From an uncultured bacterium (GTDB taxonomy: Bacteria > Bacteroidota > Bacteroidia > J057 > JADKCL01): 64,000 bases of DNA. The stretch is taken from assembly GCA_963923035.1 (NCBI GenBank), contig CAWUKT010000002.1, positions 38,574 through 102,573 on the forward strand, given 5' to 3'. Positions 10,618 through 31,400 of this stretch are shown here, one piece after another (within the stretch, counting starts at the first letter, position 1; each line of letters starts with the position of its first letter). The translations under genes and the position numbers were made by a program. The notes beneath the pieces were generated by a model. It ran no database searches, was not told the origin of the DNA, and saw nothing but the letters and a program-made list of their open reading frames with translations.

Positions 10618-11664
10618 ATGCAGGAAGACCTTTACCTCACCCTAATTTATAAGCGGCTGGAAGGCGTATTGAGTCCAGCCGAGACCGAGCAATTGGAGCA
10701 TTGGCTGGCTGAATCTCCCGCCAACCAGACGTTGGCGGAGGATGTGGAAGCGGCATGGAATGCCAGCGCCAACCTCAAAATGGAACCCGAAGTCAACCTC
10801 GACGACGCCTTTGCCCAATTGGAATTGGCCATGGATGACGAAAGTGCGCCCAAAGAGGTCGCCGAACCCACTTCCGATCCCAAGGTCCGCGATTTTCGTT
10901 CCCCCTCACCCGCTCCATCCTCCAGCACCCGACTTTGGTCCATTGCCGCCGGAATCGCCGCCCTGGTGGTCGCGGGACTCTTCTTGTATCCCCGCTTCGC
11001 CGGGTCCTCCGAAACCGAATGGCTCACCCTCGCCTCGTCCGAGGCCATCGAAACCCTGACCCTCTACGACGGCAGCGAAATCACCGTTTATCCCGGTGCC
11101 ACCTTGCAGTATACCAAGGAAATGGTCGAAGGAAAACGCCCCGTAAAATTGGACGGCCAGGCATTTTTCTCCATCGCCAAGGACCCCGAACACCCGTTTA
11201 CCATCGGCCTTCCCGGAAGTGAAATGACCGTCCTCGGCACCAGCTTCGGGATCAATACCGAAGGGCGCGACCATGTCCTTCACGTCAACGAAGGCAAAGT
11301 CTCCCTCAAAGTCGAATTTGAAGAGCAGGCCCGAATTTTGACCGCCAACCAACGCTGCGAATGGAATCCTGAGGCCAAAACCCTCGAATTTATCCCCGAA
11401 GCCTCCCCCAATGGACTCGCGTGGCATCTGGGAACCCTCAGCTTTCAGGCCACACCGCTCCGGGAGATCATCGGGGAGCTGGAAAATCAATGGGGAATAG
11501 AACTCGAAACCGAACGTTCTGAAATCCTCGATTGCCCACTTACGGTATCCTTTTCCACCCGGTCTTCCATCAAAGAAGTCCTGGAAAAACTGAGCCTGCT
11601 GTTGGGGGCGGACTGGGAAAACGATGGAGGAGGCAGCTATTCCATTTCGGGGGGTAGTTGTTGA
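10618..11664 (+). CDS. FecR family anti-sigma factor / transmembrane sensor
   Basis: 348 aa: N-terminal anti-sigma segment, a central TM helix (LWSIAAGIAALVVAGLFLY) and a FecR-like periplasmic domain (TLYDGSEITVYPGATLQY..VKLDGQAFFSI). Its stop overlaps the next start (TGATG). Confidence 0.85.
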   Translation: MQEDLYLTLIYKRLEGVLSPAETEQLEHWLAESPANQTLAEDVEAAWNASANLKMEPEVNLDDAFAQLELAMDDESAPKEVAEPTSDPKVRDFRSPSPAPSSSTRLWSIAAGIAALVVAGLFLYPRFAGSSETEWLTLASSEAIETLTLYDGSEITVYPGATLQYTKEMVEGKRPVKLDGQAFFSIAKDPEHPFTIGLPGSEMTVLGTSFGINTEGRDHVLHVNEGKVSLKVEFEEQARILTANQRCEWNPEAKTLEFIPEASPNGLAWHLGTLSFQATPLREIIGELENQWGIELETERSEILDCPLTVSFSTRSSIKEVLEKLSLLLGADWENDGGGSYSISGGSC

Positions 11665-14249
11665 TGCGGTGGCTGTGGGGATTGGCCCTGCTTTTCTTGG
11701 GGACAGGAGGCTGGTCCCAAAGTGTCCTCAACCAACGGCTGGATTTTTCGGCCGACAAAGAATCTCCCATTGCCTGTTTGATGCGACTCTCGGAAGAATC
11801 CGGCGTCGCAATTGCTTTTTCCAACCGTATCCTGGACGGCGCCAAGGAGGTTTCCCTGGACCGTGAAGCCAGCCTCCTGCGGGACGTCCTCCAGCAGATT
11901 TTGCGGGGGACGCGGTGTGGGTTTCGGGAAATAGGAGGGGAAATCATTGTCTTTCGGGAGCGTCAGCTGGTGAGTGGCTATGTGCTGGACCAAACGTCCA
12001 GCGAAGCGCTGGTCGCCGCCACGGTCTATATTCCCGGCCAACGCATGGGCACCTACACGAACGAGTACGGGTTTTTCAGCCTGGAAATTCCCGCGGAGCT
12101 GGATACGCTTCAGGTCCAGTACATCGGTTATGAGACCCAGCGGATCTTGCTGCCCAAGGACAGCGATGCCTTTGTCCAGCTCCGGCTCAAGCCGGACCTC
12201 AAGCTGGAAGACGTCGTCATTGTGGACCGTCCCGAAAGCCGCTTTCCCTTGCCCCAGGCGCCCGACGGAAAGGCCATTTCGCTGGACCTGATCCAGCAGA
12301 CGCCCACCATTGGGGGAGAGAGCGACCTCATCCGGACCGCCCAACTCCTGCCGGGCATCCAATCGGGCGTGGATGGCACCGCCGGTCTGTTTGTCCGGGG
12401 CGGAGATGCCGGCCACAACATGATGCTCCTGGACGGGGCGACTGTTTACATTCCCTACCACCTGCTCGGCATTTATTCGATCTACAACAGCAATTCGATC
12501 AAATCGGCGCGGGTCCTCAAAGGCGGCTACTCGGCCCGCTACGGCGGACGCCTGGCGGGGATCATGGATGTCCGCACCCGGGAAGGCAACCTCCACCAGT
12601 ACAAGGGAGAGGTTTCCGCGAACCTGATCAACGGGCGCCTGACGGCGGAAGGGCCGATCCAAAAGGACAAAAGCGCTTTTCTGCTCACAGGTCGCATTAC
12701 CAACCAAACCCTGTTGCTCAATCCCTTTTTCGACCGCACCTACCACACCATCCCGAATGGCACCCAGGAAAACCGGTTTCAAGACCTGTTCGGGAAGGTG
12801 AATTTCAAGTTGTCGGACCGGGACCGGATCTACCTGAGTGGGTTGTACACCAAGGATGAGTTTGGGAAGGAGTCCAATATGGTCGGCGGCGGACCCGATT
12901 TTTCTTCTGAAACCGAAGTCTACTGGAACAATGCCGCCGGGACCATTCGCTGGAACCACCTCTTCAACGAGCAGGCCTTCATCAATACCCGCGTCACCTA
13001 CAGCTTCAATTCCTTTCAGTTCTCGAGCTACGACGAATTCGCCGGCACCGGCTCTTCCTATGAATTGTACTTTACCGACAACCGCTCCCGCAACCACGAA
13101 GTGACCGTGGGGAGCGACCTGGACTGGAACATTGCACCGGGACATACCTTACGGGCCGGCGGTGGCATCACCCGCCGGACCTTCGAGACCAGCCTGACCT
13201 ATTTTGACCAGGATTCCCCAGAGATCGATTCCCTGACCGAAACCAACCCCAATACCCTGAGTGAGCTCATTAATCCTCCGACGGAAGTCGTCGGGGAAGC
13301 GTTTGCCTACCTCGAAGACGATATTCGGGTAGGCGAACACCTAACGTTTCGCCCCGGCCTGCGGGGCAGTTATTTTCAACACCCCACCGGCGACCATTTC
13401 CGCCTGGAACCCCGTTTTACCCTCGCCTACCTGCCCTCCAAACGCATGCGCTTCCACCTGAGCGGCAGCCGCATGGTCCAGTACCTCCATTTCATTTCCA
13501 ATACCTCCATCCGTTTCCCCAATGACCTCTGGTTGCCCTCCACCGATGAATTGCCGCCACAGGAGAGTTGGCAGGCGGAATTGGGAGGAGAATGGGCCTT
13601 CGGAAACCACTGGGACGCCCAGTGGGATGTGTACTACCGCCTCTTCGACGGGCTCCTGAGTGTACCCGAGGGCACCAACTTTATCCAGGGCGCCGATCTG
13701 AGCTCCGCGGGCGATTTCCTGTTGTCCGGCTCCGGCCGGGCCTACGGATCGGAATGGTCCCTGAACTATCAGTCCCAGGGCTGGGTCGGGCACCTCGCCT
13801 ATACGCTGGCCCGTACCGAAAGGACTTTTCCCGGCACCAATTTGGGCTTGACCTTTCCCCAGGACTTTGATCGGCAGCACCAATTCAATGTGATGGGGTC
13901 GAAACGGATCGGGAAGCGGTGGGAAACGGGCGTGGTGTGGTCCTATGCCTCAGCCAATCCGCGCCAGGAGTTGGTGAGCGTCGAACGGGGACTCGGATTG
14001 ACGACCATTTTGCCGCCGCCGGGGACCAAAAATAGCGTCAGGTCCGAACCGAACCACCGGCTGGACCTGACCCTTACAATGTTCGTAAATCAAAAAAACT
14101 TTTTACATCGGTTCCAAGTCTCTCTTTACAACGTTTACAACCGCTCCAACATTGCCTATTTTTTGCAAGCGCCCGGAGGAATCGGGGCGATGGAGCGCGT
14201 AGCTTCCCTCGGATTTACCCCCGGATTCTCCTATACCCTTACCCATTGA
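11664..14249 (+). CDS. TonB-dependent receptor with N-terminal STN signalling domain and carboxypeptidase-regulatory-like domain
   Basis: Signal peptide, an STN-like segment (CLMRLSEESGVAIAFSNRIL), a CarbopepD_reg-like segment (VSGYVLDQTSSEALVAATVYIPG), a plug and a beta-barrel ending FTPGFSYTLTH. Forms a FecIRA-type arrangement. Confidence 0.9.
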   Translation: MRWLWGLALLFLGTGGWSQSVLNQRLDFSADKESPIACLMRLSEESGVAIAFSNRILDGAKEVSLDREASLLRDVLQQILRGTRCGFREIGGEIIVFRERQLVSGYVLDQTSSEALVAATVYIPGQRMGTYTNEYGFFSLEIPAELDTLQVQYIGYETQRILLPKDSDAFVQLRLKPDLKLEDVVIVDRPESRFPLPQAPDGKAISLDLIQQTPTIGGESDLIRTAQLLPGIQSGVDGTAGLFVRGGDAGHNMMLLDGATVYIPYHLLGIYSIYNSNSIKSARVLKGGYSARYGGRLAGIMDVRTREGNLHQYKGEVSANLINGRLTAEGPIQKDKSAFLLTGRITNQTLLLNPFFDRTYHTIPNGTQENRFQDLFGKVNFKLSDRDRIYLSGLYTKDEFGKESNMVGGGPDFSSETEVYWNNAAGTIRWNHLFNEQAFINTRVTYSFNSFQFSSYDEFAGTGSSYELYFTDNRSRNHEVTVGSDLDWNIAPGHTLRAGGGITRRTFETSLTYFDQDSPEIDSLTETNPNTLSELINPPTEVVGEAFAYLEDDIRVGEHLTFRPGLRGSYFQHPTGDHFRLEPRFTLAYLPSKRMRFHLSGSRMVQYLHFISNTSIRFPNDLWLPSTDELPPQESWQAELGGEWAFGNHWDAQWDVYYRLFDGLLSVPEGTNFIQGADLSSAGDFLLSGSGRAYGSEWSLNYQSQGWVGHLAYTLARTERTFPGTNLGLTFPQDFDRQHQFNVMGSKRIGKRWETGVVWSYASANPRQELVSVERGLGLTTILPPPGTKNSVRSEPNHRLDLTLTMFVNQKNFLHRFQVSLYNVYNRSNIAYFLQAPGGIGAMERVASLGFTPGFSYTLTH

Positions 14250-14252
14250 CCT

Positions 14253-15512
14253 TTACTTGATCGTAAAGCCCATGCCGAAACTGACAATATTGGCGTGGAA
14301 GTTCGTGCTGCGTCGGTAGTGGGCCGCTTTGGCGTGGATGCCATTGAGGTAAATGGACTTTTCCTTGCGCATCGGCAGCTTCACCTTGAACAGTCCACCG
14401 GCAGGGGTATAATTCACGCCCAATCCAAAGGCATGGCTATTGAGCGCGGCCAGGTCGTAGTCGGAGGTATAAAATTCGCTTCCGGGGGAATGTTGTTGGA
14501 AGGGAAGGAAATAATCGGCCGCGGTCTGGGTGTGGTAGCGGTAGGAAGGCACCACCGACAGGAAGCGGTTCAGTTTCAGGGGCAATTCCAATTGGACCGT
14601 ATGCGCCTGGATTCCCCAATCATCCCAATAGTAGCGATAGGAGGCCCGAACCAAGAGCTTGTCGGACAGGTAATGGTTCACACGGACGCCCACGGGGATT
14701 TTGAGGCGGGTGGAGGGCAAACGTTCCAGCCGCGCGATGTTTTCTCCCCCAAAATAGACCCGGTGGAAGGGCGTCGAGAGCAATCCATTCATCATTGTGG
14801 CTTCCAATTGAACGGAAACCTGGGTTCGGCGGGTCAGGACCTGTTGAATCTGGGCCGCGAAATTATAGGATTGCCGGTCACTGCGGTCCAGCTGCACGCC
14901 GGTATTCCGCAATTCAATCGGGTAAATCAGGGACCATTGGTCGACGAATGACTGGAACCGGAGGTCCAGAGACGTATTCTCGTTTTCGGACAGACGGGTA
15001 TAGGAAAGGCCTGCCTGCACCGATGAATAGTCGTATTCCCCGCTTCCGCCCAGACGGGCGCCAAAGGTTTGCCGGGAGTCGATCTTGTAGACGATCCCGA
15101 CATTCCCGTGGACCCGGGTATCGTAGCCCGAATCATCGGAGTAAACCGGATCGATCATGTCGCTTGAAGCGGACGTATAGTAATCGTAGCCACCATCCAC
15201 CTTGAAAGCCAGGCGCGGCTTCAAGGGCAATGAAACGATGAGCTTCTGGGTGAAATCGGTCAAATGTTCCGTGCCCAAACCGCCGGTCACCGGCGAATTG
15301 TTTCCATCCTGCTCGTAGTAGCTGCTCAGGAAATCGATGTCCACGGCGTCCCAATTCGGGTATTCGAACTCGGCCAGTTCCGTCACCACCGAGTCCGGTG
15401 GGGTCTGCCGGGAAGTCGCCTGGCCTCCCAGGCGATTCAGTTGGGCCTTCAATTCTCCGGTCAGGAAAAGGCAGGCCACGATCAGCATGACTGCAATCAA
15501 TTGCATCCGCAA
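14253..15512 (-). CDS. DUF3570-like outer-membrane beta-barrel protein
   Basis: 419 aa with a signal peptide (MRMQLIAVMLIVACLFLTGELKAQ) and alternating beta-strand pattern throughout. Last gene of the Trx-ApbE-DUF4266 operon; its start overlaps the upstream stop by 16 nt. Confidence 0.7.
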   Translation of the reverse strand: MRMQLIAVMLIVACLFLTGELKAQLNRLGGQATSRQTPPDSVVTELAEFEYPNWDAVDIDFLSSYYEQDGNNSPVTGGLGTEHLTDFTQKLIVSLPLKPRLAFKVDGGYDYYTSASSDMIDPVYSDDSGYDTRVHGNVGIVYKIDSRQTFGARLGGSGEYDYSSVQAGLSYTRLSENENTSLDLRFQSFVDQWSLIYPIELRNTGVQLDRSDRQSYNFAAQIQQVLTRRTQVSVQLEATMMNGLLSTPFHRVYFGGENIARLERLPSTRLKIPVGVRVNHYLSDKLLVRASYRYYWDDWGIQAHTVQLELPLKLNRFLSVVPSYRYHTQTAADYFLPFQQHSPGSEFYTSDYDLAALNSHAFGLGVNYTPAGGLFKVKLPMRKEKSIYLNGIHAKAAHYRRSTNFHANIVSFGMGFTIK

Positions 15513-15718
15513 CCTCCTCCCACCTTGCCGCCATTGGCGCCGGACGCCCCTTCGCGGTAGGTATGAAAATTGGTCTCGAAATAGTCCAACTTGCCGGGGG
15601 CGAGGGCCATGTCGGGATCATTGAGGTACATTTTTTGGTAGCCCTTGACCGGGGTACAGGAGGTCAGGAGGACGAGGCTGGCGGCGGCCAGCGCGACGAT
15701 AGCTTTAAGCCGAAACAT
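15497..15718 (-). CDS. DUF4266-like small lipoprotein ending in GGGCGCN
   Basis: 73 aa from the ATG at 15718: MFRLKAIVALAAASLVLLTSC (lipobox L-T-S-C), with C-terminus ...REGASGANGGKVGGGCGCN. The 119-aa ORF in the track is an upstream extension into apbE and is not used. Confidence 0.7.
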   Translation of the reverse strand: MFRLKAIVALAAASLVLLTSCTPVKGYQKMYLNDPDMALAPGKLDYFETNFHTYREGASGANGGKVGGGCGCN

Positions 15719-16661
15719 GCGCAAATTGATTAAAGTGGTTGGAAAAGTATTGTTGGTTGTGTTGGTCGATGACCAGCGCTTCGATGCCGCGCAAGCGGTT
15801 GATGAGGTCGAGGCCATCCCGGACGCCCAATACGCTGATGGCGGTGGCAAGGGCATCGCCGAGCTCCGGGTCGGGCGACAGCACCGAGACGCATTTCAGG
15901 GCTTCGACCGGCCAGCCGGTCCTGGGGTCCACGATGTGGGACAGGCGACGGCCTTCCACGACCGTATAATTTTCATCGTTCCCTGAGGTGACCACGGAGC
16001 CGTACGGAATCCCGAAGGTCAGCAGGGGCGTCTCCCGATGTTCCGGATCCCGGACCATGACCGCCCAGTCACCTCCCTGGGGAGGGCTTCCCCAGGCCAT
16101 CAAATCGCCGGAGGCATTCACCAGGCCGCTCTCGATGCCGAGGTTCCGCATCACGTCCATGGCCCGCCGGGCCGCATAGCCCTTGCCGATCCCTCCAAAT
16201 CCAATTTTCATTCCCTTTTCCTTCAAAAACACGGTCTTTTTCCCCTCATCCAGCCCAATCTTCCGGTAGCCCATGACCCGCTTCAATTCGGCGATTTCGG
16301 CGGCATTCAGAGAAGGATGTTCTCCTCCATCGAATTTCCAGTGGTCCCGGGCCACGGTTCCGGAGATGTCAAAGGCTCCAAAAGTCAGCTGGGACACTTT
16401 CAGGCTGCGGTGAATCAGGCCGTACAGCTCATTGGGAACTGCCACGGGTGCGATGCCGGCCTGTTGGTTGATGCGGTGGGTAAACGTATCGGTGCGCCAG
16501 GAGGAAATCAGCCGTTCGATGCGGTCGATTTCGGCGACTCCGGCTCGTATGGCGTCCCAGGCATGCTGGGGATCGGCAGACACGGCCGTGAGGGTAAAGC
16601 CACAGCCCATCAACTTGAGCTGGTGGTGGTGAGCTTTCAGGGTAGCAGAAGTGGTGATCAT
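15705..16661 (-). CDS. apbE: FAD:protein FMN transferase (ApbE family)
   Basis: 318 aa with ApbE hallmarks: LMGCGFTL, AFDISG, GFGGIGKGYAA, SVVTSGN, HIVDPRTG, LGDALATA. Its start overlaps the upstream thioredoxin stop (ATGA). Confidence 0.9.
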   Translation of the reverse strand: MITTSATLKAHHHQLKLMGCGFTLTAVSADPQHAWDAIRAGVAEIDRIERLISSWRTDTFTHRINQQAGIAPVAVPNELYGLIHRSLKVSQLTFGAFDISGTVARDHWKFDGGEHPSLNAAEIAELKRVMGYRKIGLDEGKKTVFLKEKGMKIGFGGIGKGYAARRAMDVMRNLGIESGLVNASGDLMAWGSPPQGGDWAVMVRDPEHRETPLLTFGIPYGSVVTSGNDENYTVVEGRRLSHIVDPRTGWPVEALKCVSVLSPDPELGDALATAISVLGVRDGLDLINRLRGIEALVIDQHNQQYFSNHFNQFAHVSA

Positions 16662-17110
16662 GGCGTGGGAGTGGAAGAAATAGAGGCAATGAAATCAGCC
16701 GGGGATTGGCCGGGCGTAAAGGCGATTTCCTGAAGGACTTCCTGGTCGGGAGAAAGCAGCAACACCAGCGGGAACTTTCCCTTGGGGTTGAAGCGCTCCG
16801 CCAGGGATTCGTTGTAGCGGGTCTGCTCTGGCGACAATTGGTTCTTTCGTTGGGCGGGAAAATCCAGGTTGGCGAGGACCAATTCCTGACCGGCGAATTC
16901 CTTGAATTCAGGGGTGGCCACGATTTGGCGCTTGAACAGGATGCAGGGCTTGCACCAATCGGAGCCGGTGAAAAACAAGAGGACCTGCTTGTCGTCTTGT
17001 CGGGCCTCGTCGCAGGCTGCTTCCAGATCGGTCCCAATGGTTTGGGCGGGGAGTTGCGGTCCCCACCAAAGGCCGGCGAGGATCAGGAGAATACATGGAA
17101 TGGGCTTCAT
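16658..17110 (-). CDS. Secreted thioredoxin-fold protein (WCKPC active site)
   Basis: Signal peptide MKPIPCILLILAGLWWGPQLPAQ starting at the ATG at 17110, and a Trx motif LLFFTGSDWCKPC. First gene of the 4-gene operon. Confidence 0.8.
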   Translation of the reverse strand: MKPIPCILLILAGLWWGPQLPAQTIGTDLEAACDEARQDDKQVLLFFTGSDWCKPCILFKRQIVATPEFKEFAGQELVLANLDFPAQRKNQLSPEQTRYNESLAERFNPKGKFPLVLLLSPDQEVLQEIAFTPGQSPADFIASISSTPTP

Positions 17111-17263
17111 GGTCATATCTATTTGATTTGCGACCATGACCCGCAACAATTAAGTTTCCCCTATACCTCCGATAAATTTTATTTATCCTTTCCCGCTTTT
17201 ATCCTGCTCCCGGTCCCATTTTCTCCCCTGAGTTCCGCTTTTTTCCTAACTTTAGAGTTAGCC

Positions 17264-17893
17264 ATGGAGTACAACTGTCCGAATTGTGGGGCGCCCATCA
17301 ATTTCCAAAGTCGGGTCTCAATCTTCACGACCTGTACCTATTGCCGTTCGAATATCGTCCGGCACGACATGGATTTGGAAAAAATTGGAGAGTCCAGCGA
17401 GCTGTTGCAGGACCTATCCCCCTTTCAAGTCGGGACGCGCGGGACGATTGATGGAAAAAGGTTCACCCTGTTGGGCCGAATCAAAGTGGGGTATCCGACG
17501 GGGATGTGGAGCGAGTGGTACGCCCTCATGGACGATTATTCCGAGGGTTGGCTGGCCGAAGCCCAAGGTTATTACATGATGTCTTATCCCTGGAAAGGCC
17601 TTGTTCCGGAGTCCCACCAGCGCTTTGCGCCCCGCCAAAGCACCAACATCGACGGCAAACGCTTTGTCGTGGACGATGTCCGCAAAATCCGCTACCTGGC
17701 CAGCGAAGGCGAATTGCCCTTTGTCTACCAACCCGGATTTGAGGCGACCAGTGTCGACCTGCGGAGCCCCGATGGCGAATTCATGAACTTCCTGTACCGC
17801 GGCAAAGAGGCCGAGGCTTACAAAGGACGCTACGCCTCCTTCGAATCCTTTCAATTTGAGAATCTGAGGAAAATAGATGGCTGGGACGACTGA
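17264..17893 (+). CDS. Zinc-ribbon + DUF4178-like protein
   Basis: 209 aa from the ATG at 17264 (MEYNCPNCG...TCTYCRS gives CxxC..CxxC), then a DUF4178-like core (GTIDGKRFTLLGRIKV...WSEWYALMDD). The long upstream extension in the track (16706) crosses the divergent intergenic region and is rejected. Confidence 0.75.
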   Translation: MEYNCPNCGAPINFQSRVSIFTTCTYCRSNIVRHDMDLEKIGESSELLQDLSPFQVGTRGTIDGKRFTLLGRIKVGYPTGMWSEWYALMDDYSEGWLAEAQGYYMMSYPWKGLVPESHQRFAPRQSTNIDGKRFVVDDVRKIRYLASEGELPFVYQPGFEATSVDLRSPDGEFMNFLYRGKEAEAYKGRYASFESFQFENLRKIDGWDD

Positions 17894-19157
17894 ACATACC
17901 CCGAAGACACCCCTCGGCGGGGTGAAGGCGTTTAGCTGCCGCAATTGCGGCGGTCAGGTCGAGCTGCGCGCGCCCGGCCAAACCATGACGGCCGTCTGCC
18001 AGCATTGCTCTTCGATTGTCGACATCACCGACGAGAACTTCCGCATCCTCCAGCGCTACAACATGAAGATGGACCACAAGCCCCGGATTCCCTTGGGGCG
18101 GCGGGGCGTCGTGGAGGGGACCACCTGGGAGGTGGTCGGCTACCTGTACCGCCAGGCAGTCGGATACGATTTTTACTGGGAGGAATACCTCCTCTTCAAT
18201 CCCCGCCAGGGCTTCCGTTGGCTCCTTTACCAGTACGGCAATTGGTCCTTCACGAAGCCCATGGTCGAGTTTCCGGAACGGACTTCGGCCACCTTCCAGT
18301 TCCGCGGGGATTCTTACCGCCGTTACAGCACCGGCAAGGCGAAAGTCCTGTTCGTGCTGGGCGAATTTTACTGGCAGGTCAAGCGCAACGAAGAGGTCCA
18401 GACGGCCGATTGGGTCCGGGAAGGGAGTATGTTGTCGCTGGAAGTGGACGAATTTGGGCTGAACTGGACGGAAAGCACTTTTCTTGAACGCAAAGAAGTC
18501 AAAAAAGCATTTGGGGAGGATGTCAGAACGCCTCCGCCGCGTAGCGTGGCCCCTCACCAGGTCAATCCCTACGCCCGCCAGCTCAAGTCCATTCTCCCGA
18601 TTTTCCTGATCGCCCTCCTTGCGGTATTTGGCTACCAGGTCACTGTTTCCAGCCAGTACAAAGACGAAGTCACCGTCATGTTCACGGGTGAAACCTCCGA
18701 AAGTGGCGTTCAGCAGGTGACTGAATCCTTTGAAATTACCGGCCGGACGAACAATGTCCAATTGGACCTCTATACTCCCGATATCTCGAACAGCTGGTTC
18801 GAGGTTGAGGGCTACCTGCACCACCTCGAAACCAATACCAACCGGGACTTCCGGTTGACCAATGAATATTACTACGGCGTCACGGACGGCGAATCCTGGA
18901 CCGAAGGTTCCAAACGGACCGACATGGTCATCAACAATGTCCCTCCGGGCAAGTACGAACTGGTTTTCACCCCCTATTTTGCTCCGGAATCCATCAACGA
19001 CGCCACCAAAAAACAGAACTACCAGCTGTACCTGCTCCGCGGGGTGCCGATCGCATCGAATATGTGGATCATCCTGGTCATCATTTTGTCCCCGGTCATT
19101 TACCTCTGGTTCCGAAGTTCCAATTTCAAAAAAGCCCAATGGGCCGACGCCGACTGA
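17877..19157 (+). CDS. Zinc-ribbon + DUF4178-like protein with two TM helices and an extracytoplasmic domain
   Basis: 426 aa: CRNCGG..CQHCSS ribbon, a DUF4178-like core (GVVEGTTWEVVGYLYR..WEEYLLFNP) and TM helices ILPIFLIALLAVFGYQV and MWIILVIILSPVIYLWF. Overlaps the upstream gene by 17 nt. Confidence 0.75.
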   Translation: MAGTTEHTPKTPLGGVKAFSCRNCGGQVELRAPGQTMTAVCQHCSSIVDITDENFRILQRYNMKMDHKPRIPLGRRGVVEGTTWEVVGYLYRQAVGYDFYWEEYLLFNPRQGFRWLLYQYGNWSFTKPMVEFPERTSATFQFRGDSYRRYSTGKAKVLFVLGEFYWQVKRNEEVQTADWVREGSMLSLEVDEFGLNWTESTFLERKEVKKAFGEDVRTPPPRSVAPHQVNPYARQLKSILPIFLIALLAVFGYQVTVSSQYKDEVTVMFTGETSESGVQQVTESFEITGRTNNVQLDLYTPDISNSWFEVEGYLHHLETNTNRDFRLTNEYYYGVTDGESWTEGSKRTDMVINNVPPGKYELVFTPYFAPESINDATKKQNYQLYLLRGVPIASNMWIILVIILSPVIYLWFRSSNFKKAQWADAD

Positions 19158-19158
19158 T

Positions 19159-19308
19159 ATGAAAAGATTGCGCACCATCTACCTGATCATTGTGGTGGCT
19201 CTGTTGGCGGGCTACTTCACCGCGGGTGCCTCCGGATTTCGGGTCCTGAGCGCCTTCAGCAGCATCGCCTACGTCCATACCATGACCGCCGGCGTTCACC
19301 ACAAATAA
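19159..19308 (+). CDS. Small membrane protein (49 aa), hypothetical
   Basis: ATG one nt after the upstream stop. Sequence MKRLRTIYLIIVVALLAGYFTAG... has one TM helix. Supported only by position inside the operon. Confidence 0.4.
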   Translation: MKRLRTIYLIIVVALLAGYFTAGASGFRVLSAFSSIAYVHTMTAGVHHK

Positions 19309-19336
19309 TATCTGCTCCATCTTAAATTGATCTGCC

Positions 19337-19549
19337 ATGGAAATCATCGACTGGAAACTGATCCTCAATGCCGTCCTCTTCTCCGTCGTGGGAATCGTCA
19401 TCTTCCTCGCCTTCGGATGGATTTACGACAAGTTGACGCCCTTCAACCTCTGGAAGGAACTGATCGACAATAAAAACACCGCCGTCGCCATCGTTTTCGG
19501 GTCCATGATGATCGGGCTGTCCATCATCATCGCCTTCGCCCACGGCTGA
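19337..19549 (+). CDS. DUF350 (YjfL-like) small inner-membrane protein
   Basis: 70 aa with two TM helices, including LTPFNLWKELIDNKNTAVAIVFGSMMIGLSIII, which is typical of DUF350. Confidence 0.8.
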   Translation: MEIIDWKLILNAVLFSVVGIVIFLAFGWIYDKLTPFNLWKELIDNKNTAVAIVFGSMMIGLSIIIAFAHG

Positions 19550-19552
19550 TTC

Positions 19553-21049
19553 ATGCGGTACCTGCTGCTCACATCCGTATTTGTCATCGCCACATGCGGA
19601 CTGGTCTATGAACTGGTGGCAGGCACCCTCGCGTCCTATCTCCTCGGAGACTCCGTCACCCAATTTTCCATCATCATCGGGGTCTACCTCTTTTCGATGG
19701 GCATTGGCTCCTTCCTGTCCAAGTACATCACCCAAAACCTCGTCCCGACCTTCATTCGGATCGAACTCCTTATCGGGTTGATCGGTGGGTTCAGCGCCGC
19801 ATTTTTGTTCATCACCTTCGAACAGGTCGGCAGCTTCCAAATCCTGCTCTACGGGCTGGTCTCGTTGACCGGGCTCCTCGTCGGGTTGGAAATCCCACTC
19901 CTGATGCGCATTCTCCAGGACCAATTCGAGTTCAAAGACCTCGTTTCCAATATTTTCACCTTCGATTATATCGGCGCTTTGCTGGCGTCGCTGTTGTTTC
20001 CCCTCCTCCTCGTCCCCTACCTCGGCCTCATCCGCACCGCGCTCCTGTTTGGCATTCTGAATGTCGTCGTGGCGATCGCGGCGGTCTATATGTTTCGGGA
20101 CAAAATCAAACGCTTCTCGGGCCTGTCCATCGCGGCTTACCTGAGCCTCGCGGCCCTGATCGCGGGGATGTTTTTCGGGGAAAACATCCTGCGCTTCGCC
20201 GAGGGCAATGCCTACTCGAATACCATCGTCTACGCCAAATCTTCGCCCTACCAGCGGGTCGTGCTGACCCGCAAAGGCGAGCGGTTCCGCCTCTTCCTGA
20301 ACGGCAACCTGCAATTTGATTCGCGGGACGAATACCGCTACCATGAGGCCCTGGTCCACCCCGGCCTCGCCGCCCAGGAAGCGCCCCGGAGGGTCCTCGT
20401 ACTGGGCGGGGGCGACGGATTGGCCGTGCGCGAAATCCTCAAATATCCTTCCGTACAGACCATTGACCTGGTCGACCTCGATCCTTTGGTCACCGATTTG
20501 TTCCAGACCCGCGCTTCCCTCACCGAATTGAACCGCAATTCCCTCCACAGCGCCCTCGTCACCGTCCACAACGCCGACGCCTTTACCTGGCTCCGCGACC
20601 ACCCCGACCAATACGATTTCGTCGTCGTCGATTTCCCCGATCCCAGCAACTTTTCCATTGGAAAGCTCTATTCCGAACGCTTTTACCGCGAATTGAAGCC
20701 GCATATCGCGCCGGGCGGGGCCCTGGTCGTCCAGAGTACCTCCCCGCTGGTCGCCCCGAATTCCTTCTGGTGTGTGGAGCAAACCTTGAAGTCGGTGGGC
20801 TGGCAAACGGTTCCTTACCACTGCTATGTGCCCTCTTTTGGCGAATGGGGATTCATCCTCGCCAACGACGATACCTGGTTGCTACCCGAAACATATCCCG
20901 ACGGATTGCAATTCGTGGACGACGCGACCGTGCGGGCGATGACCCGTTTCCCCCTGGACATGGCCCGTCGCCCCGTCGAGGTCAACCGCCTCAACAACCA
21001 GGTGCTGGTCCAATATTTTGAAAAAGAGTGGAGCCGCTACGATCCCTGA
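19553..21049 (+). CDS. Membrane-anchored polyamine aminopropyltransferase (spermidine synthase-like)
   Basis: 498 aa: about 7 N-terminal TM helices, then a SpeE-type domain (RVLVLGGGDGLAVREILKY, DLVDLDP, VVDFPDPS). Confidence 0.85.
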   Translation: MRYLLLTSVFVIATCGLVYELVAGTLASYLLGDSVTQFSIIIGVYLFSMGIGSFLSKYITQNLVPTFIRIELLIGLIGGFSAAFLFITFEQVGSFQILLYGLVSLTGLLVGLEIPLLMRILQDQFEFKDLVSNIFTFDYIGALLASLLFPLLLVPYLGLIRTALLFGILNVVVAIAAVYMFRDKIKRFSGLSIAAYLSLAALIAGMFFGENILRFAEGNAYSNTIVYAKSSPYQRVVLTRKGERFRLFLNGNLQFDSRDEYRYHEALVHPGLAAQEAPRRVLVLGGGDGLAVREILKYPSVQTIDLVDLDPLVTDLFQTRASLTELNRNSLHSALVTVHNADAFTWLRDHPDQYDFVVVDFPDPSNFSIGKLYSERFYRELKPHIAPGGALVVQSTSPLVAPNSFWCVEQTLKSVGWQTVPYHCYVPSFGEWGFILANDDTWLLPETYPDGLQFVDDATVRAMTRFPLDMARRPVEVNRLNNQVLVQYFEKEWSRYDP

Positions 21050-22677
21050 TGTCCGATTCCTCCAACATATCGCGCCGCAATTTTCTGCGCTGGTTGGCGG
21101 GAGGGGCTGCTGCCGTAGGATTGGGCAGTGTGGGCGTGTGGAAATGGGCGGGAAAACAAGAACAAGAGATCACCGGAGCGATTCAGGGCGCGAATTCGGA
21201 TTTGGGGCACTTGGTGCGGAAGGGATTGCAGAAAAAAATCACCGAACAACGAAGGGTGGGAACGCTGATTGTAGGCGGAGGAATGGCCGGGTTGAGTGTC
21301 GGCTGGTATTTTCAGAAGCAGGGAAAAAAAGACTTCGAAATCCTGGAAATGGACCGAAAAGTGGGGGGAAATGCCGTTTCCGGAAGCCACAACAATTTTA
21401 GTTACCCCTGGGGCGCCCACTATTTGCCCCTTCCCAATCCCGAAAATACCGACCTCCTCGGTCTGCTCGAAGACCTGGGTTGCTTGACCGGCTGGCAAGA
21501 CGGCCAGCCCCGATTCGAGGAACTCTACCTCTGCCACGCGCCGCAGGAGCGCTTGCTCCACCACGGTGTCTGGCAAGAAGGCCTCGTCCCGAAAGCACCG
21601 GCGGGATCCCCCGCCGCGGCCGAATTGGACCGTTTTTTTACCCTCATCCAGCAACTCCGCCACCAACGCGGAGCGGATGGGCGCTACCTCTTCGACATCC
21701 CGGTGGACCGGTCCTCCACCGATCCTGAGTGGCAATCCCTCGACCAAATCAGCCTTGCCGAATGGCTCGAACGCGAAAATTACCATTCGGAAGAGCTGCA
21801 TTGGTACCTCGATTATTGCTGCCAGGACGACTTTGGCAGCCGCAAGGAACAGACCAGTGCCTGGGCCGGCCTGCATTACTTTGCTGCCCGCCGCGGCACC
21901 GCCGCCAATGCCACCGAAAATTCGGTGCTGACCTGGCCCGAAGGCAACGGCTGGCTGGTCCAGCAGCTTCGGGACCGATTGCAAGAGCATATCCAGACCG
22001 AATCATTGGTCCTTTCCCTGGAGTCACTTGACGAGCAAGTCCGTGCCGTTGTCTACCGCCCGGCGGAAGACAAGGCCTACGAAATCATTGCAGACCAGGC
22101 GGTCTGCTGCACCCCTCAATTTGTCAGCCAGCACATTGTTCGGGGACCGAAACGCCCCGTCGATGCCATCACCTACGCTCCCTGGCTCGTCGCCAATGTC
22201 GAATTGGGCAAGCGCCCGGGAGGCCCCGGTCGGCCGCTCAGTTGGGACAATGTTGCCTTTGGGCGGGACTCGCTCGGCTACGTGGTGGCGGACCACCAGG
22301 GCCTCAAGCGGCCCTCCGGCCCGGTCGTGGTGAGCTGGTACGCGGCCCTGGCCCATGCCGATCCGGTGCAGGTCCGCAAGGAAGCGCTGGAAACGGAATG
22401 GCCTACGTGGCGTGACCGGGTGATCGAAGATTTGGAGTGGATGCACCCGGGCATTTCGAAGGAAATCAAACGGCTGGACGTCTATGTCTGGGGGCATGGC
22501 ATGGTGACGCCCCGACTGGGCTACCTGAGTGGGGCGACGCGGCCTTTGTTCCGGCAGCCCCAGGGGCGCATTCATTATGCGCATACGGACCTGAGCGGCA
22601 TCTCGATCTTCGAAGAGGCCTTTGCTCAGGGCGTGCGGGCCGCGCGGGAAGTCCTCGGAGAGGAGGTGCCGGTATGA
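21049..22677 (+). CDS. Tat-exported FAD-dependent oxidoreductase (amine oxidase-like)
   Basis: Twin-arginine signal SRRNFLRWLAGGAAAVGLG and a dinucleotide fold motif LIVGGGMAGLSVGWYF..EILEMDRKVGGN. The ATG at 21049 overlaps the upstream TGA (TGATG). An alternative start lies at 21028. Confidence 0.8.
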   Translation: MSDSSNISRRNFLRWLAGGAAAVGLGSVGVWKWAGKQEQEITGAIQGANSDLGHLVRKGLQKKITEQRRVGTLIVGGGMAGLSVGWYFQKQGKKDFEILEMDRKVGGNAVSGSHNNFSYPWGAHYLPLPNPENTDLLGLLEDLGCLTGWQDGQPRFEELYLCHAPQERLLHHGVWQEGLVPKAPAGSPAAAELDRFFTLIQQLRHQRGADGRYLFDIPVDRSSTDPEWQSLDQISLAEWLERENYHSEELHWYLDYCCQDDFGSRKEQTSAWAGLHYFAARRGTAANATENSVLTWPEGNGWLVQQLRDRLQEHIQTESLVLSLESLDEQVRAVVYRPAEDKAYEIIADQAVCCTPQFVSQHIVRGPKRPVDAITYAPWLVANVELGKRPGGPGRPLSWDNVAFGRDSLGYVVADHQGLKRPSGPVVVSWYAALAHADPVQVRKEALETEWPTWRDRVIEDLEWMHPGISKEIKRLDVYVWGHGMVTPRLGYLSGATRPLFRQPQGRIHYAHTDLSGISIFEEAFAQGVRAAREVLGEEVPV

Positions 22678-27288: not shown

Positions 27289-28422
27289 ATGAAAGTCAGA
27301 CAGTACATCATTGTGGCCGTTGCGGGGGTGGTCATTTTTTTCCTGGGAGGGACCTTGATGGGGTTCTTTTCGTCGATGAAAACCCCTGAGAAAAAGAAAA
27401 AGCCCCGGGCTGCGGTTACGACCGTTCCCGTTCAGGCCATTCAGTATTCGGAGCAGAGTACCGAACTGGAATATTTTGGCCGGGTCAGTTCTTACCGCAG
27501 TGTGGCCATGATCGCCGAAGTCCAGGGAGAAATCCTGGCCGGTAGCGTCCCCCTCAAAGATGGCCAGCGCATTCGCAAGGGCCAATTGCTCTTCCAAATC
27601 GACAATAAAGAAAGCCGACTCACGCTGCAAAGCACCAAGAGCCAGTTCATGAAGTCGATTGCGGACATCCTAGCCGACCTCAAAGTGGATTATCCTGAAA
27701 GTTTCCCCGTCTGGCAATCCTACTTCGAAAAGCTGGATGTGACCGAGCCGCTCCCGGAGTTGCCGGAAGTCAAGGACCTCAAGGAAAAGACCTTCCTGTC
27801 CACCCGTGGCATCTTCAGCAGCTACTACAATATCCTCGCCTCCGAGGAACGCCTGACCAAATACCGGATGTACGCGCCCTTCTCGGGCAACCTGCAAAAT
27901 GTCCAGCTCGAAGCTGGCGCCATTGCGAGCCCCGGTTCGCGGATTGCCACGCTCGTGCGCACCGACCAGCTGGAGCTGGTCATCCCTGTCCGCGACGAAG
28001 ACCTGCAATGGCTGACCGAAGGGACAAAAGTCATCGTCCGCTCTGAGGGAGATGACCTCGAATGGACCGGGCAGATCGCCCGAATTGGCGAGCTCGTCGA
28101 CGCCGCCACCCAATCGGTGAATGTCTATGTCCGTGTGAACGGAACCAAGGAACAGCCCATCCTCGAAGGCCAGTACCTGAATGCGTCCTTGCCCGGCAAG
28201 GTCGTGCGCCAGGCCATGGAAGTGCCCCGCAGCGCCCTATTCGACGGCCACTACGTTTATACCATCCAGGATTCGGCGATGGCGCGCGCCTCGGTGACCG
28301 TCCACAAGGAAAATCCCCAAACCGCCATCATTTCCGGGCTCCCGGCCGGCACCACGATGGTGACTGAAATTCCCCTCAACGCCAAGGAAGGCCTTCCGGT
28401 CAAAACCATCGCCGCCCAATGA
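27289..28422 (+). CDS. Efflux RND transporter periplasmic adaptor subunit
   Basis: 377 aa with an N-terminal TM anchor and an HlyD/MFP-like barrel-sandwich and coiled-coil pattern. ATGA overlap with the RND pump gene. Confidence 0.85.
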   Translation: MKVRQYIIVAVAGVVIFFLGGTLMGFFSSMKTPEKKKKPRAAVTTVPVQAIQYSEQSTELEYFGRVSSYRSVAMIAEVQGEILAGSVPLKDGQRIRKGQLLFQIDNKESRLTLQSTKSQFMKSIADILADLKVDYPESFPVWQSYFEKLDVTEPLPELPEVKDLKEKTFLSTRGIFSSYYNILASEERLTKYRMYAPFSGNLQNVQLEAGAIASPGSRIATLVRTDQLELVIPVRDEDLQWLTEGTKVIVRSEGDDLEWTGQIARIGELVDAATQSVNVYVRVNGTKEQPILEGQYLNASLPGKVVRQAMEVPRSALFDGHYVYTIQDSAMARASVTVHKENPQTAIISGLPAGTTMVTEIPLNAKEGLPVKTIAAQ

Positions 28423-31400
28423 TTGCCAAGCTCATAGAATACTTTGTCCGGTATCCCATCTGGTCCAATGCCACCATTGTGTTTTTTCTGGTGGCGGGTC
28501 TGGTCGGGTTCAACGGCCTCAAAATGTCCTTCTTCCCCGAGTCCTCCGACCGGACGGTGGTGGTGGAAGTCGCCTATCCGGGCGCGTCGCCGGAGGAAAT
28601 GGAGGAAGGGGTCGTCCTGAAGGTCGAAGATGGCCTCAAGGGAACGCAGGGACTCGAAGAAATTACCTCGACGTCTTCCGAAAACTTCGCCATTGTGCGG
28701 GTCAAGTGGGAAGAAGGCTACGACGGCGACCGCTTCCTGGCGGATGTCAAAAATGCCGTCGACCGGATCAGCTCCTTCCCGGTGGATGCAGAAAAGCCGG
28801 TGGTATACAAGCAAAAGGACCTTGGGGGCGCCATGACCATGGTGCTGACCGGGGAAGCCGATCTGTATGAATTGAAACAGACCGCCGAACGCATCGAAGA
28901 TGATTTTCTGGCGACGGGATATATTTCCCAGGTCGGCCTGTCGGGCTTTCCCAACCGGGAAATTTCGATCGAGGTCTCCGAAGATCAATTGCTGCGGTAC
29001 AGCCTGACCTTTACGGAGGTCGCCAATGCGGTGCGGACGAACAATACGGATATTTCCGGGGGGGCCATCCGCTCGCGGGAAGAAGAGATTCTGATTCGGG
29101 CGGAGAACAAATCGTATACGCCGGAGGGCATCGGGGAGATCATTGTGCGGACGAATGCGGACGGGAGCCGCATCCTGGTGCGCGATGTCGTGACTTCCAT
29201 CAAGGAACGGTTCGCAGAATCACCCGCCAAAACGCTCTACAACGACCAGCCCGCCGTAACCATCAATGTCCAGAAGCTGATTTCTGAGGACCTGATTCAG
29301 ATCACGGACTTCCTGAAGGAATACATCGAAGATTGGAACCTGAACAATGAGCGGGTCAAAATCGCCATCATCAACGACCAAAGTGAAGGCTTGAACCAGC
29401 GCCTGGATTTGTTGGTGGAAAATGGAGTCCTCGGATTGATTCTCGTCCTGGTGGCCCTCGGCTTCTTCCTGAACTTCCGCCTCTCCTTCTGGGTCGCCTG
29501 GGGCATTCCCTTCTCCTTCATGGGCATGTTCTTCGTCGCTTACCTCGTCGGCATCACCATCAATATGCTGTCTCTGTTCGGCATGATTCTCTCGGTGGGG
29601 ATTCTGGTGGACGACGGCATTGTGGTGGGGGAAAATATATTCGCGCATTACGAGCGGGGAAAATCGCCCGTGCGAGCGGCCATTGATGGGGCCATGGAGG
29701 TATTGCCTTCGGTTTTTACTTCCGTCACGACCACCATCATTGTTTTCTCCATCTTCTTCTTCCTCAGCGGCCAAATCAGCAATTTCCTCGGAGAAGTCGC
29801 GGTGGTCATGGTGGCAACGTTGGCATTTTCCCTCATTGAATGTACCCTCGTACTGCCCGCTCACCTCGCCCACTCCCGGTCCCGCAACAAGAAAAGCGCC
29901 ATCCGGGACTTCTTCGACGGCATCATCGACTTCCTGAAAAATCGCGTCTACGGCAATGTCCTCCGGTTCTTCATCAAGTACCGCGGCGCCACCCTAATCA
30001 TTCCGGTCTTCATGTTGATGGTCACAATGGGCCTGATGAACGGAGGCTTTATCCAGCAAACCTTCTTCCCGAACATTGAAAATGACCAGACTTCGGTCTC
30101 GCTGATCATGAAACCGGGAACGCGGGAGCAGATTGTGGAGATGGAACTGCGGAAAATGAATGAGATCGTGTGGCAAATCAACCGGGAACTGGCCCAGGAA
30201 TACAATATCGACTCGATCATCACCGATACCCGGATTGAGATTGGGTCGGCCAGTGGCGAATCGGGCGGCCATACCGGCACGCTCAATATTTCGTTGATGG
30301 ACAACGATGACCGCCCGGTCGCAGCCGGAGAGATCGACCAAATGCTGCGCGAGCGCGTACAGGTGCCTGCCACGGCGGAAAAGTTCCTCGTCGGTGGCTT
30401 CCGGACCTTCGGCAAGCCTGTATCGGTTTCCCTCACGGGCAACAACCTTGAAATCCTGAACTCAGCCAATGAGTCGCTCCAAAACGAATTGCGGCAATTC
30501 ACCGCCCTCAAGGACGTCACCGACAACCAGCAGGCGGGCAAACGCGAAGTCAAAATCAAACTCAAGCCCAAGGCCTATAACCTGGGATTGACCCAGGGAG
30601 AAATCGCCCGCCAAGTCCGGCAGGGCTTCTTCGGCGAGGAAGTCCAGCGCCTCCAAAAGGGCGAGGACGAGGTCAAGGTCTGGGTCCGCTACCCCGAATC
30701 GGGCCGCGACAACCTCGGCGAGCTGGACAATATGCGGATCAAAACACTGGCGGGGACCTCGTTCCCGTTCTCTGAAGTCGCCGAATACAAAATCGAGCGG
30801 GGCATCGTGGCCATCAACCACTTCAATGGCGCCCGCGAAATCAAAGTGGAAGCCGACCTCGCCGACCAAAGCAAAGCGGTCGGGCCCATCCAGGAGGAGA
30901 TCGAAAACGATGTCCTCCCGCGGGTTCTGGACGCCCACCCGGGGGTCCGGGCGGAATTCAGAGGCCAGGCCCAGCGCCAGGCCGAACTCTTTTCCAGTGC
31001 GCCGGTCGTGGTTTCGGTGGCCATTTTCCTGATGTTCCTCCTCCTGACCCTGACCTTCCGCAGCCTTCCCCAGGCCCTGATGCTGATCCCGATGATCATC
31101 CTCGGACTGGTCGGAGCCCTGTGGGGACACGGCATCCACGGCAAGCCCGTCTCGCTGCTGTCCATGTACGGTCTGCTGGCGGTCTCGGGGATTGTCATCA
31201 ACGACGCCGTGGTCCTCATGGCCAAATTCAATTTGAATATCCGGTCGGGAATGAAGGTCATCGAGGCGGCGTACGAAGCGGGCTTGTCGCGCTTTCGGGC
31301 CATCCTGTTGACTTCCGTGACGACGGTCGCAGGGCTCTATCCGCTGATCCTCGAATCGAGTCGCCAGGCCCAATTCCTGATTCCAATGGCCATTTCGGTG

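Follow-up and report, generated by a model that had tools for sequence, protein, structure and literature searches.

A Saprospiraceae-type instance of the ApbE/DUF3570 envelope redox module whose ApbE lacks an export signal

Within a 64,000-nucleotide stretch of an uncultured Bacteroidota genome (assembly GCA_963923035.1, contig CAWUKT010000002.1, positions 38,574 to 102,573 of the forward strand; hereafter the window), we analysed four co-oriented, overlapping minus-strand open reading frames (ORFs), read from the window sequence, which code in order for a thioredoxin-like protein (Trx), an ApbE-family transferase of flavin mononucleotide (FMN), a DUF4266 lipoprotein and a DUF3570 protein. 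This locus is a further, Saprospiraceae-type instance of the published ApbE/DUF3570 envelope redox module. The explanation that we favour, and hold as a whole to be highly probable, is that it belongs to the "DsbD-system" type of this envelope electron-transfer module, with DsbD encoded elsewhere, and that its DUF3570 protein is the predicted substrate of the operon's ApbE. The original prediction, made from the sequence of the window, had left this ApbE with no known target, which is outdated, as a homologous DUF3570 is a demonstrated ApbE substrate and the window protein carries candidate acceptor motifs. What this ApbE flavinylates was already answered in 2021, and the module itself is known but functionally uncharacterised. 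We further found that the missing export signal of the ApbE is a genuine, conserved state that extends beyond the window. As signal-less ApbEs are spread across clades with signal-bearing sisters, it is now directly testable in which compartment an exported protein acquires its flavin and how far it is folded at that point.

The module was described by Méheust et al. (eLife 2021, PMC8238504) as ApbE combined with DUF3570, a PF13899 thioredoxin-like protein and DUF4266 in 543 genomic clusters, 227 of them with DsbD (PF02683) and 316 without it nearby. In that study, the DUF3570 protein of Chlorobium luteolum is reported to be flavinylated by its cognate ApbE in Escherichia coli; it has two [S/T]GA[S/T] motifs, and the flavin signal is lost only when the serines of both are mutated. 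The assay was performed with signal-peptide-truncated, i.e., cytoplasmic, proteins, and the DUF3570 protein was largely insoluble. The minimal ApbE motif has been defined as D-x-x-[S/T]-G-A-[S/T], with FMN on the last residue and the seven residues being sufficient (PMC12052999). Haft's sorting-signal preprint mentions both DUF3570 and DUF4266 in passing, and a 2024 follow-up from the Méheust group contains no model of DUF3570.

All four predicted genes were recovered as overlapping minus-strand ORFs, and Pfam matches bore out the predicted domain identities: Trx (16658..17110; 150 aa from the ATG at 17110, the longest possible start being the TTG at 17149; PF13899 Thioredoxin_7, E=1e-12), ApbE (15705..16661; 318 aa, beginning MITTSATLKAHHHQLKLMGC; PF02424, E=3e-69), DUF4266 (15497..15718; 73 aa; PF14086, E=4e-18) and DUF3570 (14253..15506; 417 aa, or 419 if started at the TTG at 15512; PF12094, E=4e-35). 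The ApbE and DUF3570 genes, both scoring far over the gathering threshold, share a strand, and the 222-nt DUF4266 gene lies between them and overlaps both. A scan of 185,579 species genomes yielded 581 relatives, of which 80 loci were kept for a phmmer census of gene order. The order Trx-ApbE-DUF4266-DUF3570 on one strand is retained in 72 of these 80 Bacteroidota loci, across Saprospiraceae, Lewinellaceae, Pontibacter, Hymenobacter, Mucilaginibacter and Flavobacteriales, so the synteny in related genomes on which the original prediction hinged does hold, and the four-gene arrangement is far beyond chance. The eight exceptions comprise three loci cut by a contig end, two that are rearranged (L063 and L070), one without ApbE (L072) and two in which only ApbE or Trx is displaced (L060 and L080). 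The rearranged pair displays the order DUF3570-Trx-ApbE-DUF4266 and falls in the second of the signal-less ApbE clades described below. In L072 (7305-9110; a Schleiferiaceae metagenome-assembled genome (MAG)) Trx is followed by DUF4266 and DUF3570, the ApbE gene being absent from its place after Trx, and the DUF3570 keeps both SAS motifs; its ApbE must be encoded elsewhere or have been lost.

In the window's DUF3570 protein we recognise two candidate acceptor sites (residue numbers are those of the 417-aa form). Site A, D108-Y-Y-T-S-A-S114 (15165..15185, minus strand), matches D-x-x-[S/T]-G-A-[S/T] with Gly replaced by Ser, and S114 is its predicted FMN acceptor. Among the 120 nearest DUF3570 homologues S112 and S114 are invariant, with A113 present in 113; the SAS triplet occurs in 79 of the 80 genomic loci (SES in L008) and in all but one of about 135 more divergent representatives from 50%-identity clustering whose sequence spans the site. 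Site B, S123-D-D-S126 (15129..15140, minus strand), is degenerate in the window and lies 12-25 residues downstream of site A across relatives; its S126 is invariant in the alignments of the 80 loci and the 120 homologues. Most other lineages have SSAS at this site, Flavobacteriaceae the canonical SSGAS and Hymenobacter STPS, and the window's own clade features SSDS, SGES or SDDS. Proteobacterial DUF3570s bear the textbook motif, e.g., VDAVSGAS in Magnetococcales and YDTVSGAS in Vibrio and Shewanella. Another conserved element of DUF3570 homologues, VTGGxGT at residues 73-79 (VTGGLGT in the window), was considered as the first flavinylation motif and rejected, as its acceptor position is variable (I, L, V, T, E, K, R) and no Asp stands at -6. 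The family is large: a profile search of 1.84 billion representatives recovered 2,589 DUF3570 clusters at E <= 1e-3.

The window's ApbE aligns with the solved active ApbE/FmnB structures 7esa, 4xdt and 3pnd, and all the catalytic and flavin adenine dinucleotide (FAD)/Mg-binding motifs (GxxxKG[YFW], SGD, TSG, H-[IV]-[IV]-D-P-x-T-G and D-A-L-x-T) are found in it, reading GIGKGY, SGD, TSG, SHIVDPRTG and GDALATA in that alignment. Against the NCBIfam equivalog PRK10461 (E. coli-type ApbE) it scores 108.3 bits with a cutoff of 498, and is therefore a member of the family, not of that equivalog. Export signals are present on the other three proteins, as had been predicted, namely Sec-type signal peptides on Trx (MKPIPCILLILAGLWWGPQLPAQ, forming a hydrophobic N-terminus) and DUF3570, and a lipobox on DUF4266. 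The ApbE itself has no signal peptide, lipobox, Tat motif or transmembrane segment, the maximum 19-residue hydropathy across the whole protein being 1.09, and the oddity of such an enzyme beside exported partners, remarked upon from the start, is real. The suggestion that an upstream non-ATG start might add a signal peptide fails: a stop lies 12 codons upstream with no start in between, and the residues encoded there, FHCLYFFHSHA, do not form a signal peptide. Two further candidates were rejected. The "LMGC" element is not a cryptic lipobox, for it falls on the first position of the ApbE Pfam profile, where other ApbEs have their MGT/MGS motif, and no hydrophobic stretch precedes it; "KAHHH" is not a clade-specific signal, as signal-bearing Pontibacter orthologues have a KAH-like element too, placed after their signal peptide.

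The signal-less state is shared by all 120 of the nearest ApbE homologues (54-100% identity), in which 10-50 hydrophilic residues precede a conserved KAHH[HYF]xxKLMGC. Among the Bacteroidota loci, 18 have a signal-less ApbE, and all but one of these fall in two separate monophyletic clades of the ApbE tree, the first being the Saprospiraceae clade of the window and the second comprising Rufibacter, Mucilaginibacter, Chitinophagales and Chryseolinea. Signal-less and signal-bearing orthologues alternate between sister clades; the catalytic motifs are intact in clades of both kinds, and the other three proteins keep their export signals in every lineage with a signal-less ApbE. The ApbE of the Vibrio cluster likewise has 120 of 120 listed relatives, down to 41% identity, without a signal peptide, the DUF3570-cluster context of such proteobacterial signal-less ApbEs being confirmed in three loci. 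In Pontibacter indicus (L037:6822-7784) we found the only signal-less ApbE inside an otherwise signal-bearing Pontibacter clade; because its ORF starts directly at MLLLMGT, the missing signal probably reflects a frameshift, an assembly error or a truncated start and does not count as a third independent loss.

An AlphaFold2 model of the DUF3570 protein, built from a 74-sequence alignment (predicted local distance difference test score (pLDDT) 87.9; predicted template modelling score (pTM) 0.78), has 16 long strands and one 4-residue strand, and supports its prediction as a 16-strand outer-membrane beta-barrel. Foldseek searches of the PDB with this model returned generic outer-membrane barrels alone (FadL, OmpG, OccK and PgaA; TM-scores 0.35-0.47), with a probability of 1.00 for the FadL, OmpG and OccK barrels, and none of the matches was a specific solved relative of DUF3570. 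In the model, site A ends strand 3 (residues 99-115), and site B closes a low-confidence loop (118-125) before strand 4 (126-141). The connections on the face that bears these sites are long (9, 10, 18, 24 and 27 residues), and most of those on the opposite face are of 2-8 residues. Outer-membrane proteins usually have long loops outside and short turns on the periplasmic side. As the connections on its face are the long ones, the flavin loop would face outward or into the lumen; both acceptor serines would thus be placed in a single strand 3-4 loop on the long-loop face, where they are predicted to be out of a periplasmic enzyme's reach once the barrel has folded.

We posit that ApbE, with FAD as the donor, would link FMN through a phosphoester bond to DUF3570 at Ser114 and possibly also at Ser126. 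A soluble, signal-less ApbE could flavinylate the linear motif on the unfolded DUF3570 precursor in the cytoplasm, after which the FMN-bearing chain would be threaded through SecYEG and assembled into an outer-membrane barrel by the barrel assembly machinery (BAM), with the flavins on an outward- or lumen-facing loop. The attachment of FMN in the cytoplasm before Sec export is a tentative proposal, plausible and short of probable. It is favoured by several considerations: ApbEs without an export signal make up large clades that are still under purifying selection; the substrate would have to be modified in the unfolded state, given that in the modelled barrel a periplasmic enzyme would no longer get at the acceptor loop; a short linear motif suffices for ApbE (PMC12052999); and the published assay worked on a truncated, largely insoluble protein in the E. 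coli cytoplasm (PMC8238504). If true, ApbE flavinylation would here for the first time be seen to precede export, and no FAD would have to be delivered to the periplasm. Since signal-bearing and signal-less orthologues alternate between sister clades, it would also mean that cytoplasmic and periplasmic flavinylation are interchangeable over evolution. Confirmation would alter the view that flavoproteins outside the cytosol are necessarily modified once exported, with FAD that has itself been exported.

The remaining two proteins of the operon display conserved cysteines. The redox motif of Trx, W52-C-K-P-C56 (16943..16957, minus strand; read from the sequence), belongs to a WCxxC found in all 77 Trx orthologues, 72 of which have WCxPC, and the closest NCBIfam family of the protein is the periplasmic disulfide reductase DsbH (NF043050; 85.7 bits, under the 190-bit equivalog cutoff). 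DUF4266 combines a lipobox, L18-T-S-C21 (codons at 15656-15667, minus strand), whose Cys is present in 20 of 20 N-termini inspected, with a C-terminal C70-G-C72 pair (codons at 15503-15511, minus strand) within a GGGCGCN end that is retained in 77 of 78 orthologues and also in Vibrio, Shewanella and Magnetococcales. From these conserved cysteines, the co-occurrence of the genes and their translational coupling, Trx and DUF4266 most likely form a thiol-disulfide relay to a barrel-bound flavin. In this scheme, a DsbD/CcdA-type membrane protein encoded elsewhere would reduce the exported, DsbH/DsbD-gamma-like WCKPC thioredoxin, which would exchange with the Cys-Gly-Cys tail of the DUF4266 lipoprotein; DUF4266 would in turn reduce the FMN or FMNs on the DUF3570 loop, from which electrons might pass to an acceptor at or beyond the outer membrane. 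The ApbE-to-DUF3570 step is the one with experimental support, obtained in a homologue; we infer the transfer from thiols to flavin, the way in which electrons flow, their final acceptor and the place of flavinylation in the cell.

Several observations weigh against this reconstruction. Site A of the window has Ser in place of the canonical Gly, and site B is degenerate (SDDS). The equation of sites A and B with the two serines of the published protein is a fit of motifs, not a direct alignment with the C. luteolum sequence. The Vibrio SGAS is matched to site A by local similarity only, as the profile aligns the barrel core alone and the MAFFT placement is unreliable. The predicted orientation of the barrel, with its loops outside, derives from loop lengths and not from coordinates. 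To our knowledge, no FMN-bearing chain is known to cross SecYEG. DUF3570 can evidently be flavinylated in the periplasm, given that 56 of the 77 Bacteroidota loci with a scorable ApbE, including those of Lewinellaceae, Pontibacter, Hymenobacter and Flavobacteriales, have an orthologue that bears a classical signal peptide; other means might compensate for the signal-less state. A Salmonella ApbE expressed in the cytosol did not complement its own function (PMC12052999). Finally, the electron source is assumed, because DsbD/CcdA was found neither among the large annotated genes of the window nor within 8 kb of the module in any of the 80 Bacteroidota loci.

The prevalence of exported orthologues lends itself to a different division of labour, in which a second, exported housekeeping ApbE (e.g., that of Na+-NQR) flavinylates DUF3570 in the periplasm and the operon's ApbE has a distinct cytoplasmic job, such as flavinylating a cytoplasmic protein, hydrolysing FAD as a pyrophosphatase or trafficking flavins. 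Cytosolic ApbEs are so far known for cytosolic targets only, e.g., the Klebsiella pneumoniae fumarate reductase (PMC12052999), and some ApbE/Ftp homologues hydrolyse FAD (PMC4767422). However, in three independent lineages the signal-less ApbE has remained in the operon, with translational coupling to partners that are exported, it retains the transferase motifs, the cluster encodes no FMN_bind or other cytoplasmic target, and the signal-bearing genes are plainly its orthologues and stand in the same operon. We therefore regard such a substitution by a housekeeping enzyme as unlikely, and continue to favour the operon's own ApbE as the one acting on DUF3570.

Genomic context offers another reading, namely that the module is part of a TonB/FecR iron-uptake or envelope block, e.g., as a ferric reductase for the adjacent receptor. 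A FecR and TonB-dependent receptor pair lies directly downstream (10618-14249), L014 also has such genes nearby, and VIT1 iron transporters occur in 25 published DUF3570 clusters (PMC8238504). Yet FecR and a TonB-dependent receptor adjoin the module in only one of the 80 related loci (L014, weakly), the window's two DUF4178 genes and its DUF350 and SpeE-like neighbours recur there in none, and the receptor gene of the window is convergent, not co-transcribed. Even the commonest flanking family, a CusA-type pump of the resistance-nodulation-division (RND) family, is found in just 14 of 80 loci, mostly of the single genus Hymenobacter, and no conserved flanking gene beyond such lineage-specific CusAB-type pumps emerged as a clue to function. 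Of the "contiguous envelope-centred block" proposed earlier, what stands is that TonB-dependent receptor genes flank the operon; the neighbours are not conserved, so the adjacency of the TonB/FecR and DUF4178 genes looks incidental, which argues against reading a function from these flanks. The module is a self-contained, autonomous four-gene unit, and a functional tie to such an iron-uptake or envelope block appears decidedly improbable.

Among these lineage-restricted neighbours, the CusA/CusB-type RND pump (AcrB family, CusB barrel-sandwich domain and outer membrane efflux protein (OEP)) adjoins the module in L045-L056, L060, L064, L073 and L076, and P-type ATPase and Rieske genes lie near it in six loci each. 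These genes may hint at a metal-stress context. The window has an HlyD/AcrB pair of its own at 27289-31694, 10 kb from the module. Divergent from the operon, at 17264-22677 on the plus strand, is a block encoding a DUF4178 protein, a second DUF4178 protein with an N-terminal zinc ribbon, DUF350, a membrane-anchored spermidine-synthase-like protein and a TAT-signal amine oxidase; it has the appearance of a polyamine-related module and does not recur beside the flavinylation operon in relatives.

The gene junctions bear on a route by which ApbE might still reach the periplasm. Confirmed directly from the sequence are the ATGA junction of Trx and ApbE at 16658-16661 and the 14-nt overlap of ApbE and DUF4266 at 15705-15718, and the claim that the four genes are translationally coupled is judged correct. 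The ATGA overlap puts the ApbE ATG one base before the stop of Trx, which bears a signal peptide, and could thus be imagined to yield a frameshifted Trx-ApbE fusion; a non-classical export route is the other form of this idea. We discard the fusion, as the Trx/ApbE junction contains no slippery sequence, spacing and frame vary among signal-less relatives from a 4-nt overlap to a 61-nt gap, the proteobacterial ApbE follows DUF3570 and not Trx, and no fused Trx-ApbE protein appears among the 240 homologues listed. With the lack of a Tat motif or transmembrane segment in ApbE also counting against it, periplasmic delivery by either means is very improbable. Least credible of all is the initial notion of an orphan ApbE acting on something else, possibly DUF4266, to which only the confirmed lack of FMN_bind, NQR or RNF genes among the window annotations lends any colour, since a DUF3570 is a demonstrated substrate (PMC8238504), the window's DUF3570 has the conserved motif and the DUF4266 sequence has no [S/T]GA[S/T]-type motif.

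The third junction required revision: DUF4266 and DUF3570 do overlap, but by what is likelier 10 nt (15497-15506) than the 16 nt first proposed. The ATG at 15506, giving a 417-aa protein that begins MQL, is more likely the DUF3570 start than the TTG at 15512, because the 417-aa product is identical to the database protein P0121 and the junction sequence ATGCAAYTRA recurs among relatives, where the genes overlap by 10 nt in 23 loci and by 16 nt in 10. The MQL N-terminus is kept across phyla, including Magnetococcales. In the window and at the junctions of 33 loci, the DUF3570 ATG sits within the codons for the invariant Cys-Gly-Cys-Asn-stop end of DUF4266; a single DNA stretch is therefore constrained in two reading frames. 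At the other end of the operon, the 153-bp region shared with the divergent operon (17111..17263) exists as described, is AT-rich (42.5% GC versus 55.3% for the window) and presumably contains the operon promoter. Scans for a sigma-70 promoter and the Bacteroidota -7 motif, both within 17111-17263, and for terminators returned nothing convincing or above background.

The proteobacterial relatives of the module have their own peculiarities. In contrast to the Bacteroidota arrangement Trx-ApbE-DUF4266-DUF3570, their order is Trx-DUF4266-DUF3570-ApbE, followed by DsbD in Vibrio or DsbD_N in Shewanella and Magnetococcales. The Vibrio locus encodes a full-length DsbD (L081:8726-10468), and the Magnetococcales and Shewanella loci stand-alone, DsbD-alpha-like DsbD_N proteins (L082:6873-7334 and L083:6879-7286), in all three cases translationally coupled to ApbE. 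Their thioredoxin is TlpA/AhpC-like (WCxSC) and not of the PF13899 type seen in Bacteroidota. By eye, the Vibrio ApbE (L081:7848-8729) has SHILSQRG for HI[IV]DPxTG and GALSTA for DALATA, apparently replacing the Mg-binding Asp, and to judge from these residues the Vibrio-type cluster ApbE may work differently from canonical ApbEs. In an Epsilonproteobacteria MAG (JAHZIS010029046.1; L084:155-1339), a 394-aa lipoprotein with weak WD40/beta-propeller Pfam matches is encoded between a C-terminal DUF3570 fragment and a signal-less ApbE; it carries two VSGAS motifs (VDSVSGASE and SETVSGASF) and may represent a further, undescribed class of ApbE substrate.

Compared with the clusters of Méheust et al. 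(PMC8238504), the window locus has the same four Pfam families (PF02424, PF12094, PF13899 and PF14086), the C-terminal CXC of DUF4266, two putative Ser-acceptor motifs in DUF3570 and three exported proteins out of four, and it falls in the subclass of 316 clusters without DsbD nearby. It differs in having TSAS instead of SGAS at site A, a degenerate SDDS at site B and an ApbE without an export signal, a point that the passages of PMC8238504 consulted leave undiscussed. The canonical periplasmic lipoprotein ApbE of E. coli, Salmonella and Vibrio cholerae, which serves NqrB/NqrC and RnfD/RnfG, shares the fold and catalytic motifs of the window's enzyme and the FAD-dependent FMN transfer to a Ser/Thr that ends D-x-x-[S/T]-G-A-[S/T], but has a lipoprotein signal that the latter, scoring 108 bits against the equivalog cutoff of 498, lacks; the predicted target in the window is an outer-membrane barrel, not an FMN_bind domain or NqrB. 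Closer in one respect is the cytoplasmic ApbE of K. pneumoniae, which acts on a soluble fumarate reductase: it is also signal-less and is active in the cytoplasm, but its target is cytoplasmic, whereas the only plausible target in the window is Sec-exported and would end in the outer membrane. The DsbD-DsbH and DsbD-TlpA pathways resemble the module in that the window's Trx is an exported CxxC protein of the thioredoxin fold, most similar to DsbH and DsbD-gamma, and in that DsbD or DsbD_N belongs to the cluster in Proteobacteria. They differ in that this Trx is under the DsbH equivalog cutoff, that no DsbD is linked to the module in Bacteroidota and that the place of enzymes for cytochrome c maturation or protein repair is taken, in the proposed scheme, by a flavinylated barrel and a CXC lipoprotein. 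A hypothetical analogy can be drawn with the porin-cytochrome conduits MtrAB/MtrCAB, which likewise pair an outer-membrane barrel bearing redox cofactors with a periplasmic redox partner; no sequence or specific structural similarity of DUF3570 to them came to light in the Foldseek search of the PDB. Unlike these conduits, the module of the window has no haem motifs, a predicted 16 strands instead of 26 and, on our reading, covalent FMN on the barrel's own loop.

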